The notes: generated by a model not told the origin, from the letters alone. Positions 22,798 to 28,805 are shown, numbered from the stretch's first letter. The stretch is DNA of 32,000 nucleotides from Promethearchaeota archaeon (GCA_048939465.1 JBHLPL010000006.1:1-32000); one strand, 5' to 3'. Numbers and translations: made by a program.

Positions 22798-23262
22798 ATG
22801 GGTGATTTGAGTCTTGTTGGGAGATGTGGGTTGTACTGTGGTGCATGCGGAATACTCAGGGCATACAAGGACAGAGGAGAGTATCTTCAAAAGGTCGCTA
22901 AATTCCATAAACTACCACCAGAAAAAATAAGATGTGAGGGTTGCCAAGCTCTCACCGCTGACTGTTGGGGATCTAATTGTGAGATCCTCAAGTGCCTAGA
23001 TGCAAAAGGATTCGATTACTGCTATCAGTGCCCAGACTATGATTCAAGGTCATGCGAAAAGTTTGAAAAGTTCGCAGAAGCCTATCTAAAGGAAGACAAT
23101 GTAGATCTCAGAGCAAACCTTGAGAGAATAAAGGCGGGAGACTACGAGAACTGGCTTAAGGAAAGCGAAGAGAGATTCAGATGTCCTAAATGCGGAAAAC
23201 CTTTGTCAACATATAGCAGGATTACCGAGTGTTATCACTGTAATGAGAAACTGTCAGGTTAG
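22798..23262 (+). CDS. DUF3795 Cys-rich protein with a C-terminal zinc ribbon
   Basis: GRCGLYCGAC, CEGC, CEILKCLDAKGFDYCYQC and CPKCG...CYHC. Confidence 0.9.
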   Translation: MGDLSLVGRCGLYCGACGILRAYKDRGEYLQKVAKFHKLPPEKIRCEGCQALTADCWGSNCEILKCLDAKGFDYCYQCPDYDSRSCEKFEKFAEAYLKEDNVDLRANLERIKAGDYENWLKESEERFRCPKCGKPLSTYSRITECYHCNEKLSG

Positions 23263-23310: not shown

Positions 23311-24555
23311 ATGCTAAGGCTATTTAATACCCTTACACATAAGAAGGAACCCTTTATCTCGAGAGAAGGTAAGAAAGTAAAAATGTACACTTGCGGCCCT
23401 TCAGTCTATAGACGGCCCCATATTGGGAATTATCGCACTTTTCTCTATGAGGATGTTCTTCAACGATATCTGGAGTATCTCGGCTATAATGTTATCCGGC
23501 TTGTCACTTTAACAGATGTTGAAGACAAGGCAATCTACGAAGCAGAAAACAAGAAGACTGCTCTGGAGAATCTCACACAGAGAATTGCTGAGGTATTCTT
23601 CTCTGAGGAGAAGCTTCTGGGAATCAAACCTGCAGACTTCTTTCCTCGTTCTTCAACTTCGGTCGATCAAGCAGTAGAACTGATTAAGATCTTGATAGAT
23701 AAGGGATACGCCTATTGGCACAAGCATGAGAATAGACTAAATGTTTACCTAGATCCATTGAAGATCAAAGAATTTGGAAAACTGTCAAAAATAGATATGA
23801 ATAACTGGCCGAAGAGTAAACGCCGGTTCCATAAAGACAATTATCCTGGTACCCCTTGGAACAAGGGAGATTTCATACTGTGGCACGGCCATAAGAAGGC
23901 GGACAAAGTATACTGGGATACCGACATTGGTAAAGGCAGACCAGCCTGGAACGTCCAAGACGGAGCCATGGTAACCAAACATCTGGGATTCAGCGTAGAT
24001 ATTGCGTGCGGGGGAATAGATAATCTCGTGAGACATCATGACTACAATATCGCAGTAATAGAAGGAGTCTCAAACAAGGAGTTTTCGCATTACTGGCTCC
24101 ATGGTGAGCATCTGCTTGTGGATGGAAAGAAGATGTCGAAAAGCAGGGGAAATGTCTATTACCCTGGGGATCTCATACAGATGGGATATAGTGAAAAACA
24201 TATACGTTTCTTTCTCATCTACGAACACTACAGAAAGCGATTGAACTTCACAGTTAAGAAATTCAAGAGAATAAGCCAGAGACTGGACAACTTCAGAGAC
24301 ACTATCGGAGATCTGATAAGCGGAGAATCCGGTGAGTCAAGTCAGACAGCAAGAAGTCTTGTCGCCGAGATTATTACTAGTTTTGAAGAGAATATGAACA
24401 ATGACTTGAATGTGAAGAATGGCTTTGATGATCTTCAAAGGATCATCTTAGGACTCAACACATTAAGGAAGAATGGCAGACTTGCAACTGAAGACGCTGC
24501 TGCTGCCGTAGCAAGCCTGCAGAAGATTGATCAAGTTCTACGCGTAATCTTCTGA
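23311..24555 (+). CDS. Cysteinyl-tRNA synthetase-like class I ligase (divergent paralog)
   Basis: MYTCGPSVY..PHIGN, DVEDK, GDFILW and KMSKSRGN are present, but GRPGWHIEC is replaced by GRPAWNVQD and the protein ends after the helical DALR-like domain (414 aa). Confidence 0.9.
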   Translation: MLRLFNTLTHKKEPFISREGKKVKMYTCGPSVYRRPHIGNYRTFLYEDVLQRYLEYLGYNVIRLVTLTDVEDKAIYEAENKKTALENLTQRIAEVFFSEEKLLGIKPADFFPRSSTSVDQAVELIKILIDKGYAYWHKHENRLNVYLDPLKIKEFGKLSKIDMNNWPKSKRRFHKDNYPGTPWNKGDFILWHGHKKADKVYWDTDIGKGRPAWNVQDGAMVTKHLGFSVDIACGGIDNLVRHHDYNIAVIEGVSNKEFSHYWLHGEHLLVDGKKMSKSRGNVYYPGDLIQMGYSEKHIRFFLIYEHYRKRLNFTVKKFKRISQRLDNFRDTIGDLISGESGESSQTARSLVAEIITSFEENMNNDLNVKNGFDDLQRIILGLNTLRKNGRLATEDAAAAVASLQKIDQVLRVIF

Positions 24556-25025
24556 TATTTCGGGGTTAAGCAGAAATGAGAGGTGCTGTGTTTAAACTGA
24601 ATACCTTTCAGATGATTTCCCACCACTGAAATGCAAGCCTTTCGAAGCAGGAATACCCAAGCCTAATGAGAGAGGATCAAGAGTCATCACAAGTAGGACA
24701 GGAATACGAAAGCGGAGAGAAAACACCGTAGAGAAGGTCTACAGATTAGAATACCTCAAAATAAGCAAATAGATTCTTCAAAAAGGCAGCAGAGGCAGCC
24801 TAAGACGAAGAAGATCGTCAGGATTTATACATTTCATGGAATATGACAGGATTAATTCCGATTAATCACGTCTATAGGAACCTCCTGAGAATTATTTCAT
24901 TTTGGCAGGAAAAATAAACAATGTCCAAACCTAAATCTCGAAATCTTTTTAATATTATTCATTATACGAATTAAACGTCATAAAAAAAGATGAATGAGAA
25001 GTACTCAATTCGGGGGTGGAGTAAT

Positions 25026-27434
25026 ATGGTGGAAGAACTACCGGTTGAGAACCTAAGAAAAGTGTTTAGGCCCGAGGGGTTCGAGTGTGAAACTACCAAA
25101 GACCTGCCGCCTCTTGAGGGAATTGTTGGTCAAGAGAGGGCAGTGAGGGCACTGAGATTTGGGCTGGATATCAAGGAACCAGGGTTCAACGTATACATGG
25201 CAGGAGAATCAGGGACTGGCAGGATGACAGTTTTAAAGGATTTCCTGGGTGAGATAGCAAAAAAGAAGAAGATTCCAGACGACTGGTGTTACGTTAATAA
25301 CTTCAAGAGTCCCTACGAGCCAGAGGCTGTAAAACTGCCTGCGGGTAAAGGCAAGGAATTCAAGAAGGACATGGCGAACCTAATTAATGATATTAGAAGA
25401 TTGCTCCCTGAAGCCTTCAGAAGTGATGATTATACCGCGAAAAGAGAGGCAACCGTCAGAGCCATAGAGGAAGAGAGAGAGGAACTAATTACTCGGGTCA
25501 ACAAGAGAGTTCAAGAAGAGGGATTCTCCCTCAGAAGCAGCCCGATAGGTTTGGTTATGATTCCCATGGTTGAGGGGAAACCCTTGAGCGAGGAGGAGTT
25601 TGTGGCTCTAAGTCCAGAGAGAAAGGAAGAAATCGAGAAGCGAAGAACAAAACTAGATACGGAACTGAGAGTTGTCTTAAGGCAAATAAGGGATTTAGGA
25701 AAGAAGATTGGACAGGAGCTTGAAAAAGTCAATCATGAAGTGGCCCTCTTTGTAATAGGGCCATTAATAGCGGATCTAAAAGAGAAATATGAAGGGCTTT
25801 CTGGATGTTTGAATTACATAGATAATGTTAAGGATGACATCTTAGAGAATGCTCCACAGTTTATAAAGGAACGCGGGCCCAAGGCTCCCGGCATTTCTGC
25901 TCAACTTCCTTGGACCATGGAGGTTCCTTTCAGAAAATACGAAGTGAACCTAACAGTAGATAATTCAGATCTGCAAGGTGCTCCAGTGGTTTTGGAGACC
26001 AATCCAACACATCAGAATCTATTTGGAAAGATCGAGAAGGAGGCACGATTCGGGGTTTTAACAACTGATTTCACCATGATACGGCCAGGTTCGTTACACA
26101 GAGCAAATGGTGGATATCTGGTACTTCCGGTTGAAGAGCTGCTGCGAAACATTTTCACTTGGGACGGACTCAAGATGGCCATCAAGAATAAGGAGGTTTC
26201 AGTCGAAGAACTGGGAGAACGCCTAGGGTTTATCACAACGAAGAGTCTTAGGCCCGCTCCCATACCGTTAGATGCCAAGGTGATACTTGTAGGGAAGACC
26301 GAGTACTATCATATTCTGTATATTCTTGACAGAGACTTCAAAGAGTTGTTCAAGGTCAAAGCAGAGTTCGACACAACCATGGATCGGACAAAAGAAAACA
26401 TAGACAAGTTTGCATCGTTCATTTGTACCTTCTGCAGAAAGGAGAATCTGAAACATCACGAAGCAACAGCAGTGGCCAAGCTGATCGAGTACAGTTCCAG
26501 ACTAGCTGACCATCAGGAGAAGTTGTCTACCAAATTCTCGGAAATTGCAGACATCATCAGAGAAGCTAACTTCTACGCTACCCAGGAGAGCGCTGAGTAT
26601 ATCACAGGAAATCATGTCAGGAAAGCCATCGAAGAAAAAATACACAGATCAAGGCTTCTGCAAGAGAAGATACAGGAGATGATCAAGCAGGGGTTTCTGC
26701 TTATCGATATAGAAGGCGAGAAGGTGGGGCAGGTAAATGGGCTTTCTGTGATGAGTTTAGGCGATTTCTCCTTTGGGCGACCCTCACGTGTTACGTCAAG
26801 TGTTGGTATGGGGAGAGAAGGCATTATAGATATTGAGCGTGAGGCGATGCTCGGAGGAAGTATTCATACCAAAGGTGTCATGATACTTGGCGGCTACTTA
26901 ACAGAGAAATATGCCAAGGATAAACCACTCAGCTTGTCTACACGATTAGTCTTTGAACAGAGTTACAGCGGAGTAGAAGGGGATAGTGCTTCAAGTACCG
27001 AACTCTATGCAATTCTCTCAGAACTCTCAGGACTTCCTATTAAGCAATATATTGCTGTTACTGGTTCTGTGAATCAGAAGGGAGAGGTTCAGGCTATTGG
27101 CGGAGTGAATCAAAAGATCGAGGGGTTCTTTGAAGTATGTAAGATCAAAGGTCTTACAGGAAAACAAGGAGTGATGATACCTCAAAGCAACGTGCAAAAT
27201 CTGATGTTAAAAGAAGAAGTATTAGAGGCAGTCAAGGAAGGGAAATTCCACGTATACGCTGTGAGTAGTATTGATGAGGGGGTTGAGGTCTTAACAGGGG
27301 TTCGGGCGGGTAAAAGAAAACCTGATGATGAGTTTGAAGAAGGAACTGTGAATTTTGCTGTGGACAAACGTCTAAGAGAAATGGCTGAAAAGATTAAGGA
27401 ATATCCTGAATTTATCTTGAGAAAAAGAAGTTGA
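25026..27434 (+). CDS. Lon-like protease, LonC type (degenerate AAA+ module, Ser-Lys dyad)
   Basis: VGQERA, YVNNF, PGSLHRANGGYL, GQVNGL, EGDSAS and VNQKIEGF; Walker A is GESGTGRMT; GGGGTGGAG SD before ATG 25026. Confidence 0.92.
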   Translation: MVEELPVENLRKVFRPEGFECETTKDLPPLEGIVGQERAVRALRFGLDIKEPGFNVYMAGESGTGRMTVLKDFLGEIAKKKKIPDDWCYVNNFKSPYEPEAVKLPAGKGKEFKKDMANLINDIRRLLPEAFRSDDYTAKREATVRAIEEEREELITRVNKRVQEEGFSLRSSPIGLVMIPMVEGKPLSEEEFVALSPERKEEIEKRRTKLDTELRVVLRQIRDLGKKIGQELEKVNHEVALFVIGPLIADLKEKYEGLSGCLNYIDNVKDDILENAPQFIKERGPKAPGISAQLPWTMEVPFRKYEVNLTVDNSDLQGAPVVLETNPTHQNLFGKIEKEARFGVLTTDFTMIRPGSLHRANGGYLVLPVEELLRNIFTWDGLKMAIKNKEVSVEELGERLGFITTKSLRPAPIPLDAKVILVGKTEYYHILYILDRDFKELFKVKAEFDTTMDRTKENIDKFASFICTFCRKENLKHHEATAVAKLIEYSSRLADHQEKLSTKFSEIADIIREANFYATQESAEYITGNHVRKAIEEKIHRSRLLQEKIQEMIKQGFLLIDIEGEKVGQVNGLSVMSLGDFSFGRPSRVTSSVGMGREGIIDIEREAMLGGSIHTKGVMILGGYLTEKYAKDKPLSLSTRLVFEQSYSGVEGDSASSTELYAILSELSGLPIKQYIAVTGSVNQKGEVQAIGGVNQKIEGFFEVCKIKGLTGKQGVMIPQSNVQNLMLKEEVLEAVKEGKFHVYAVSSIDEGVEVLTGVRAGKRKPDDEFEEGTVNFAVDKRLREMAEKIKEYPEFILRKRS

Positions 27435-27528: not shown

Positions 27529-27999
27529 ATGAACGAAAAGAAATCATTATTTAAAATTCTAATCCAGAAGACAGTAGGTATCTTGAATGATGAAAGGGGC
27601 GAAAACAGAAAACTCAAGGAAATATGCAGATTGCTCAAGGATAATGTAACCTATTATGATTGGGTGGGATTCTATTCTGTTGACAGGAAAGGAGAAAAGG
27701 AGCTTGTACTTGGACCGTTTGAGGGGGAACCGACAGAACATGTAAGAATACCTTTTGGAAAGGGGATATGTGGGCAAGCTGCGGACACGGAAAAGACGTA
27801 TATCGTTCAAAATGTGAAAAAGGAATCAAACTACTTGTCCTGTAGCCCTAAAGTCAAGTCTGAGATTGTTGTCCCAATATCCAGAGGAGGAAGGGTCGTG
27901 GGTGAGATTGACGTAGATTCTCACACTCTTTCACCGTTCACAGAGGAAGATAGGGAATTCCTTGAGAAAATAAGTAGCTTGGTATCCAGTCTTCTTTAA
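27529..27999 (+). CDS. msrC: GAF-domain protein, free methionine-R-sulfoxide reductase-like
   Basis: YDWVGFY, LGPFEG, GKGICGQAA, YLSCS...SEIVVP and GEIDVDS. Confidence 0.82.
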   Translation: MNEKKSLFKILIQKTVGILNDERGENRKLKEICRLLKDNVTYYDWVGFYSVDRKGEKELVLGPFEGEPTEHVRIPFGKGICGQAADTEKTYIVQNVKKESNYLSCSPKVKSEIVVPISRGGRVVGEIDVDSHTLSPFTEEDREFLEKISSLVSSLL

Positions 28000-28250: not shown

Positions 28251-28805
28251 CTAGGTCTTTCCTTTTACATATCCGTGCATTGTCACTTCAGCAAACATCT
28301 CTCTTTTTGCTTTACAAATCGGACAGAGATAAGGAGGTTCTTCTCTATAACATACATAACCGCATTGTTTACAGTACCACATTATTAGACCGATTCTGGG
28401 GGTTCTCTTAACGGTCGCTGCTCTTGTATCAGAGGATTTTTCAGGAGGGGTTTCGGCAGCCCCTGCAAAGGCTCTGGCTTCTTTGTCCGCGGGTCTCCGT
28501 TCGGGGATCTTTCTCACAGGGAGCCTGCCCTCAAACACGTCCTTGTTAACATAAAGCGAACAATAGCAGACTCCGAACTCCTCGACGTCCGGGTCCCGAT
28601 AGTCACAGGGGCAGACGATATCCCTATCAAGCTCGAAATTTCCTGACGCAAGTCTGCAGGGACAGGAAGGATAGCCGTATCGCTCTTCATTTCGGTTCAG
28701 TCCTTCAAGAAGACCTTTAAGAAAATCCGGATCAGGATTCAAATAGTAACCGCGAGTCTTTGCGTCGCTTTCTGCCCTTCGTCGAACCCTTTCCAGATTC
28801 TTCAT
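28251..28805 (-). CDS. Ferredoxin:thioredoxin reductase catalytic domain fused to a rubredoxin-like domain
   Basis: RYGYPSCPCR, CPCDY and CYCSLY motifs; C-terminal WYCKQCGY...CPICKA. Confidence 0.92.
   Translation of the reverse strand: MKNLERVRRRAESDAKTRGYYLNPDPDFLKGLLEGLNRNEERYGYPSCPCRLASGNFELDRDIVCPCDYRDPDVEEFGVCYCSLYVNKDVFEGRLPVRKIPERRPADKEARAFAGAAETPPEKSSDTRAATVKRTPRIGLIMWYCKQCGYVCYREEPPYLCPICKAKREMFAEVTMHGYVKGKT

Follow-up and report, generated by a model that had tools for sequence, protein, structure and literature searches.

In this study, we describe a paralogue of cysteinyl-tRNA synthetase (CysRS) encoded in a 32,000-nucleotide stretch of DNA from a Promethearchaeota archaeon (GCA_048939465.1 JBHLPL010000006.1:1-32000; hereafter the window), at positions 23311..24555 of the plus strand, on which all features of the gene given below also lie. 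The open reading frame starts with ATG, has its stop codon within the span and encodes a protein of 414 amino acids, which displays the full signature of what we call the WNxQD family, namely AWNxQD and RHHDY[NT] motifs, a length of ~414 residues and a chain that ends at the helical bundle. As read from its sequence, the paralogue carries the complete class-I adenylation machinery together with the residues that hold the amino-acid backbone, and a conserved, remodelled pocket made of Cys28, Asp217 and His242 with Asn214, Gln216, Arg241 and Tyr245. MshC, the tRNA-independent cysteine:GlcN-Ins (glucosaminyl inositol) ligase of mycothiol synthesis, is likewise without an anticodon domain, and the explanation that we place first, at somewhat less than an even chance, is that the paralogue is an accessory, horizontally mobile CysRS-derived ligase which works beside the normal Cys-tRNA routes and follows the logic of MshC in using an acceptor other than tRNA.

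CysRS is the standard example of an enzyme that picks its amino acid by means of a metal centre and does not edit, and the E. coli enzyme selects cysteine through a zinc ion bound by C28, C209, H234 and E238. The best sequence match of the paralogue is canonical CysRS (E 5e-65), and residue-by-residue alignment to the E. coli enzyme (1li5) showed that C28 is kept as Cys28 (TCGPS, 23392..23394), the first metal ligand, invariant in the family as in canonical CysRS, and that W205 and H234 are kept as Trp213 and His242. Five other positions are changed: H206 to Asn214, E208 to Gln216 and C209 to Asp217 in the WNVQD motif that stands for canonical WHxEC (residues 213-217, 23947..23961), H224, invariant in canonical CysRS, to Ala232 in IACGG (residues 231-235, 24001..24015), and E238 to Asn246 in RHHDYN, which stands for PHHENE (residues 241-246, 24031..24048) and brings the further changes P233R, E236D and N237Y in E. 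coli numbering. Canonical CysRS, too, commonly have Cys as the second residue of IACGG. The HIGN signature (residues 37-40, 23419..23430), of which H37, G39 and N40 are invariant in the family, has the form usual among canonical CysRS, and the KMSKS loop (residues 274-278, 24130..24144) is conserved in the family as well. GRPAWNVQD, IACGG, RHHDYN, HIGN and KMSKS are thus all present as the original prediction, made from this DNA alone, had quoted them, and the Asp and Asn that it placed at the C209 and E238 positions, like the chain end at 414 residues, are borne out by the alignment and the open reading frame.

The remodelled pocket is a property of the family as a whole. When 54 members with 43-86% identity to the window protein were aligned, N214, Q216, D217, R241, H242, H243, D244 and Y245 proved invariant, as did C28, G29, P30, H37, G39, N40, T68, D69, K73, W213, K274, M275, S276 and K277; the adenylation and backbone residues common to the family and to a comparison set of 102 full-length canonical CysRS also include D72, H243 and S278, and N40 is conserved in both sets. 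N214, Q216 and D217 stand at 100% in the family versus H, E and C at 98-100% in the canonical set, where C209 is conserved at 98% and His224 at 100%; Glu occupies the E238 position in 117 of 122 full-length rows outside the family. Fourteen positions are fixed within the family and within the 102 canonical enzymes yet differ between the two sets, the substitutions T31S, V64L, T115S, Y155F, K192H, G212A, H214N, E216Q, C217D, H232A, P241R, E244D and N245Y being counted along with a two-residue Pro-Gly insertion at 179-180; the change of E246 to N or T lies outside the fixed-in-both criterion. Nine of these changes fall in the two stretches of chain that make up the metal and side-chain pocket. 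Since the pocket changes are invariant across 54 homologues, they speak for a selected family and not for decay. Catalysis is likewise to be expected from the invariance of HIGN, KMSKS and every residue that binds the backbone in these homologues from two domains of life, and the paralogue would still make an aminoacyl-adenylate. It is for this reason that a pseudo-enzyme, that is a binding or regulatory protein without ligation catalysis, seems to us very unlikely, even though a lone gene without pathway partners would suit it.

The pocket may well still hold a metal through the Cys28/Asp217/His242 triad, given that Asp is a competent zinc ligand, that Cys/Asp/His zinc sites bind thiolates elsewhere, for example in protein farnesyltransferase, and that the relatives of the family described below change one ligand per step. 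Zinc enzymes that activate thiols have such a ligand set, and the paralogue would therefore bind cysteine or a close analogue, with altered selectivity. Alternatively, the pocket may have been switched to another amino acid, a reading that overlaps with those of a non-tRNA and of an RNA acceptor, the candidates being serine or threonine bound via a harder metal site, or else an anionic side chain, for instance that of phosphoserine, cysteine sulfinate or aspartate. A carboxylate in place of the C209 thiolate, the neutralised acids (E208Q, E238N/T) and the added, invariant Arg241 and Tyr245 all argue for such a switch, and so do two full-length CysRS (P0165 and P0244), which read WHED and PHHECE and compensate their Asp at position 209 by a Cys at 237, where the WNxQD family has Tyr and not Cys. 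On the other hand, the thiolate binding of Cys/Asp/His sites just mentioned, the invariance of Trp213, whose E. coli counterpart stacks against the cysteine substrate, and the retention of Cys209 by the graded relatives until the last step all count against a switch, and so does the lack of a link to SepRS, which occurs in only 2 of 23 carrier genomes; we regard another amino acid as a possible but doubtful substrate. In P0165 and P0244 themselves, the second zinc cysteine has apparently shifted from position 209 to 237, a ligand swap within canonical enzymes.

The paralogue is not the cell's own CysRS. The genome to which the window belongs (1.96 Mb in 152 contigs, 91% complete) carries a canonical cysS on another contig (C84:7039-8439, 506 bits, 477 aa), whose product reads GNVRPGWHIEC, HTGG and PHHENE, and in addition SepRS (C116:26611-28149, 509 bits) and SepCysS (C33:17220-18386, 395 bits), so that the direct and the indirect routes to Cys-tRNA are both complete besides the paralogue. 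The original prediction had proposed a tRNA-independent or editing enzyme with a different amino-acid substrate, unless this gene were the only CysRS route in the genome and charged tRNA-Cys efficiently, and that exception does not apply. The prediction is supported in part, namely as to a CysRS paralogue that is not the cell's CysRS, with two of the four E. coli zinc ligands replaced and the C-terminal anticodon-reading domain gone, whereas tRNA independence, editing and another amino acid are possibilities. Canonical cysS was also above cut-off in 23 of the 23 other carrier genomes; unlike canonical CysRS, the family is always a second copy in the carriers examined, and the paralogue almost certainly has a function outside ordinary protein synthesis. 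A back-up CysRS, redundant or resistant to stress, that charges ordinary tRNA-Cys with cysteine would account for the overall proximity to CysRS, for the loss of one oxidisable thiolate ligand and for the redox genes that are frequent neighbours. It is nevertheless highly improbable: the paralogue scores 309.2 bits to TIGR00435, the cysS equivalog model, under the cut-off of 340 and over model positions 1-400 of 466 only, its GCA-reading domain is missing, it departs from canonical CysRS at residues that are invariant there to 98-100%, and two complete Cys-tRNA routes are already present. SepRS and SepCysS, though both found in this genome, were rejected as family-wide partners on the count of 2 in 23 carriers given above.

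The architecture of the chain is that of a CysRS without its tail. An alternative TTG start six codons upstream (23293) is possible, and the ATG is the likely start because the homologues begin at the same MLxxFNTLT. Pfam tRNA-synt_1e (PF01406), the CysRS catalytic family, matches residues 19-319 with 246 bits, and a weak, sub-threshold DALR_2 match lies at residues 358-410. Like canonical CysRS, the paralogue has a Rossmann core, a connective peptide 1 (CP1), a stem-contact (SC) fold and a helical bundle, the last at residues 315-414 (24253..24552; aligned to E. coli CysRS up to residue 390) with predicted helices at 315-337, 345-363, 368-387 and 393-410; the chain stops where canonical CysRS goes on into the alpha/beta anticodon domain, leaving 137 residues after KMSKS versus ~200 in full-length CysRS. 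An AlphaFold model built on the alignment of 54 homologues reached a predicted local distance difference test (pLDDT) score of 94.7 and a predicted template modelling score (pTM) of 0.93, the helical bundle folding confidently and the CP1 loop having the lowest confidence (pLDDT 75-88). The best fold match of the model was CysRS 8qhp with a template modelling (TM) score of 0.89, followed by 1u0b at 0.85 within a range of 0.82-0.89 for CysRS structures, compared with 0.80-0.83 for structures of MshC. The anticodon-binding domain, which the original prediction had declared absent, is missing in part: the C-terminal alpha/beta domain is gone, and the retained helical bundle is of the type that AARS Online describes as the class-Ia anticodon-binding helix bundle (PMC11580382). 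Because this bundle stays, the claim is better read as the absence of the CysRS-specific anticodon-reading tail.

Among the known enzymes closest to the paralogue is MshC, for which TIGR03447 and the structures 3c8z and 8hfm served as references. Both proteins belong to the length class of ~410 residues, with the same domain set without an anticodon domain, and, as the MshC motifs GRPGWHVEC, DIQGGG and PHHEYS show, His224 is lost in both (Gln in MshC), position 237 is Tyr in both, and Glu238 gives way in both to a small polar residue. MshC uses cysteine, and it too is without the E238 ligand. The likeness has its limits, since MshC retains WHVEC with the second zinc cysteine, where the paralogue reads WNVQD, and the paralogue reaches 171.6 bits to TIGR03447 versus a cut-off of 485. 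Carriers of the family are anaerobic archaea, Deltaproteobacteria and Spirochaetes, unlike the Actinobacteria in which MshC is found. Another comparison concerns moonlighting as a persulfide synthase, for which a KIIK motif has been described in E. coli CARS (PMC12926118); the paralogue reads KAIY there, the second Lys being gone.

An RNA substrate also has to be considered, in which case the paralogue would aminoacylate or modify a tRNA, either tRNA-Cys or another, via its acceptor end and without reading the anticodon, much as CysRS* of Desulfobacterales acts on selC* tRNA or GluQRS on the anticodon loop of tRNA-Asp. The paralogue retains the helical bundle as well as the SC-fold, R299 and R308 being conserved, and its CP1 loop is remodelled: in the alignment to 8qhp, WPKSKRRFHKDNYPGTPWNKG (residues 166-186, 23806..23868) stands where the canonical GARV hairpin sits, with more Lys/Arg and the Pro-Gly insertion, and K170, R171, K175, P179, G180, W183, N184 and G186 are conserved in the family only. 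Family-specific conserved Lys/Arg residues occur in this loop (170, 171 and 175), beside KMSKS (K273 and R279) and in the helical bundle (317, 324, 329, 369 and 405). The median net charge of the family is +13.5, versus -7 for canonical CysRS counted over its first 400 residues, and in 9 of 11 paired genomes the canonical CysRS is the less basic of the two enzymes; the window's genome is an exception, with +12 for the paralogue versus +19 for the canonical enzyme, which counts against an RNA substrate. Representatives of the tail-less relatives discussed below carry a net charge of +26 to +43 in five of six cases (P0195, +1), the median of their Micrarchaeota type being +28. Such basic charge favours an anionic partner for the paralogue, be it RNA, a small molecule bearing phosphate or the surface of a membrane, and since the bundle and nearly all conserved canonical residues outside the pocket are kept and the family is basic, a tRNA or other polyanionic acceptor is conceivable.

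A working CysRS without an anticodon domain is known from Desulfobacterales, where CysRS*, a second CysRS copy, is encoded beside selB* and the selC* tRNA-Cys(UCA), is thought to use cysteine, and has PTVS instead of MSGA as its CP1 motif (Mukai et al. 2016, PMC5389517); the CP1 loop of CysRS reads the first acceptor base pair (PMC5389517). The WNxQD paralogue resembles CysRS* in being a second copy with the anticodon domain gone and an altered CP1 motif, and differs from it in that its CP1 stretch reads KSKR (family consensus KKKR) and its metal site is changed. No linkage of the paralogue to selB* or selC* was found, and a tRNA gene was present in 0 of 23 family loci and absent from the window, so identity with CysRS* was rejected on these grounds together with the different CP1 motif. 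A link to selenocysteine was rejected as well: selD was below cut-off in the window's genome and occurred in 5 of 23 carriers, all Deltaproteobacteria, being absent from all archaeal and spirochaete carriers. A tRNA-Sec model match of 50 bits in the window's genome (C43:4-89) and an intron-containing 'tRNA-SeC' called by aragorn on contig C68 were not trusted, because selD is missing; aragorn found 7-15 tRNAs in this genome, a set too incomplete for spotting an unusual tRNA. Together with the loss of His224, which is invariant in 102 tRNA-charging CysRS and lost in MshC too, the missing tRNA, selB*/selC* and selD links and a CP1 motif that is not PTVS make action on RNA unlikely in our view, though still a serious rival reading.

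Several observations weigh against our preferred explanation of a ligase with a non-tRNA acceptor. Every segment of the family is nearer in sequence to CysRS than to MshC (for the N-terminal part of the paralogue, 102 bits versus 32), and beyond the pocket only V32 and P112 of the conserved canonical positions are relaxed. The kept bundle, the Lys/Arg-rich, acceptor-facing CP1 loop and the basic charge would fit RNA binding equally well, and the exchange of a thiolate for a carboxylate ligand, along with the neutralisation of two acids close by, might just as well reflect another amino acid. In the family loci, moreover, there is no conserved glycosyltransferase, deacetylase or acetyltransferase beside the gene that might act as a partner, and no neighbours of the MshA, MshB or MshD type were found in a search confined to 24 loci, a GNAT gene lying two genes off in one locus only.

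The nearest relatives of the WNxQD family are other tail-less paralogues of ~400-415 residues that retain Cys209. All 29 tail-less rows fall opposite 30 canonical rows across one branch (SH-aLRT, the Shimodaira-Hasegawa-like approximate likelihood-ratio test, 84), which is suggestive of a common group of tail-less paralogues, WNxQD family included, as against canonical CysRS. Their pockets can be arranged in a series of four types, from GWHxEC with HHENE (representatives P0129 and P0148) over GWSxEC (P0132) to AWNxQC with NHHENT, in which His224 is lost (~60 clusters, from Micrarchaeota where named), and finally AWNxQD with RHHDY[NT], the WNxQD family. The Micrarchaeota type shares with the WNxQD family A212, N214, Q216, the loss of H224 and Thr at 246, and its ligand set of Cys, Cys and His without Glu is the same three-ligand arrangement as in MshC; in contrast to the WNxQD family, the tail-less relatives keep Cys209 and the E-N of HHENE. 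A sister relation of the third and fourth types was recovered by FastTree and was not present in the best IQ-TREE tree, where the approximately unbiased test did not reject it (p-AU 0.37).

A DrrA-like ABC ATPase and an ABC-2 permease adjoin four of the six tail-less representatives examined (P0129, P0132, P0164 and P0195), and in all of the 11 Micrarchaeota-type loci (L050-L060), which are those found in 301 genomes of the phylum of genome G621, the pair lies immediately upstream on the same strand. We also observed this three-gene arrangement in three further lineages (L040, L042, L044, L047-L049). Micrarchaeota-type genomes measure 1.0-1.2 Mb and have a full cysS (in the three genomes checked for it) and no SepRS, and thioredoxin or glutaredoxin genes lie near tail-less paralogues in three lineages. 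The transporter linkage, with a full cysS kept, points to a non-translational role for the wider tail-less clade. The WNxQD gene itself differs in this respect from its relatives, as the ABC-2 pair adjoins it in only 1 of 23 loci (L023), and a tblastn search of the window's genome found no ABC-2 permease resembling that of the sister lineages.

A word-indexed search returned hundreds of proteins of ~410-420 residues with 58-86% identity to the paralogue, those with names being 'class I tRNA ligase family protein' from metagenome-assembled genomes (MAGs) of Hodarchaeota, Lokiarchaeia and Bathyarchaeia, and genome contigs added Deltaproteobacteria, Syntrophobacteraceae and Spirochaetales as carriers. 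The family is compact, about six representatives out of 1.8 billion bearing its signature at 50% clustering. It occurred in 4 of 301 sampled genomes of Asgard archaea, the phylum of the window (three of three in the window's own genus and one other), and, within Bathyarchaeia, the class to which a Bathyarchaeum carrier belongs, in 16 of 301 genomes. Phylogenetic trees unite the family in a single clade (support 99-100) with a long stem (~0.5 substitutions per site), which comprises bacterial lineages and an archaeal group; FastTree placed the archaeal members in one group (support 95), IQ-TREE left them unresolved, and the Hodarchaeota sequences were nested among those of Bathyarchaeia and Lokiarchaeia. 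The patchy distribution and the tree pattern indicate horizontal transfer of a dispensable gene. In two Deltaproteobacteria/Syntrophobacteraceae MAGs, the family gene appears split into three open reading frames (L028) or shortened to residues 1-190 (L032), which could be due to decay or assembly error. Five deltaproteobacterial carriers (G009, G010, G021, G022 and G023) also have a third CysRS-like gene within open frames of 770-848 residues, which score 250-418 bits to cysS.

Neighbours of the family gene were compared by all-against-all clustering of open reading frames over 24 loci with naming by Pfam. No neighbour is conserved across clades and only clade-specific ones were found in these loci, so that a family-wide operon was rejected. 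In two Hodarchaeota genomes, that of the window and L007, a DUF3795 gene lies ~50 nt upstream and a gene for a LonC-like protease downstream. The window itself encodes a Cys-rich DUF3795 protein of 154 residues (22798-23262, plus strand), which ends 48 nt 5' of the paralogue on the same strand, a LonC/LonB-like AAA+ protease of 814 residues (24990-27434, plus strand) with AAA_32, LonB_AAA-LID, LonC_helical and Lon_C domains, followed by a GAF-domain protein (27529-27999), and, ~3.7 kb from the paralogue, a thiol-redox gene for a fusion of a ferredoxin-thioredoxin reductase catalytic chain with a rubredoxin-like domain (28251-28805, minus strand). Elsewhere, Mtd lies upstream and a Y-family polymerase downstream in Bathyarchaeum, genes for an OsmC-hydrolase fusion and for a CNNM/CorC protein upstream in Syntrophobacteraceae, a peroxiredoxin directly upstream in L009, a thioredoxin downstream in L010, and rubrerythrin with an ABC ATPase and ABC-2 permease near the gene in L023. 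Redox-stress genes thus recur among the neighbours, as judged by a raw count. A class-II fructose-bisphosphate aldolase gene lies immediately downstream in a Bathyarchaeon (L008, 5507-6424) and in a Spirochaete (L025, 11338-12306), and the two genes may be a cassette that moved between domains.

In the ligase reading that we prefer, the activated residue would go not to a tRNA-Cys whose anticodon has been verified but, by analogy with MshC, to another acceptor, which is most likely no tRNA and is probably anionic, in a role that may be dispensable and possibly tied to redox stress. Going further, it is conceivable, if somewhat unlikely, that the paralogue represents a new ligase derived from the aminoacyl-tRNA synthetases, whose Cys/Asp/His centre would select a non-standard or modified amino acid for an anionic non-tRNA acceptor, for example a polymer, the head group of a lipid or the precursor of a small thiol, and whose ancestry would lie in the tail-less clade linked to ABC-2 exporters. 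If true, this would mean an undescribed pathway in anaerobic archaea and bacteria, perhaps to a low-molecular-weight thiol or an aminoacylated component of the envelope.

The CysRS offshoots described so far are MshC and CysRS* only (PMC9437257), and full-text literature searches yielded nothing on the WNxQD family or on its ABC-2-linked tail-less relatives. The WNxQD family would thus be a third, well-conserved offshoot, in which the metal centre has been rewritten and the adenylation chemistry kept, and which archaea and bacteria of anoxic sediments have exchanged. The graded relatives and the strict ABC-2 coupling offer experimental handles on it. The substrate of the paralogue would reveal how a zinc-thiolate selectivity filter gets retuned, and its product could be a new metabolite, such as the missing small thiol of these anaerobes, or the outcome of a new tRNA-related reaction.

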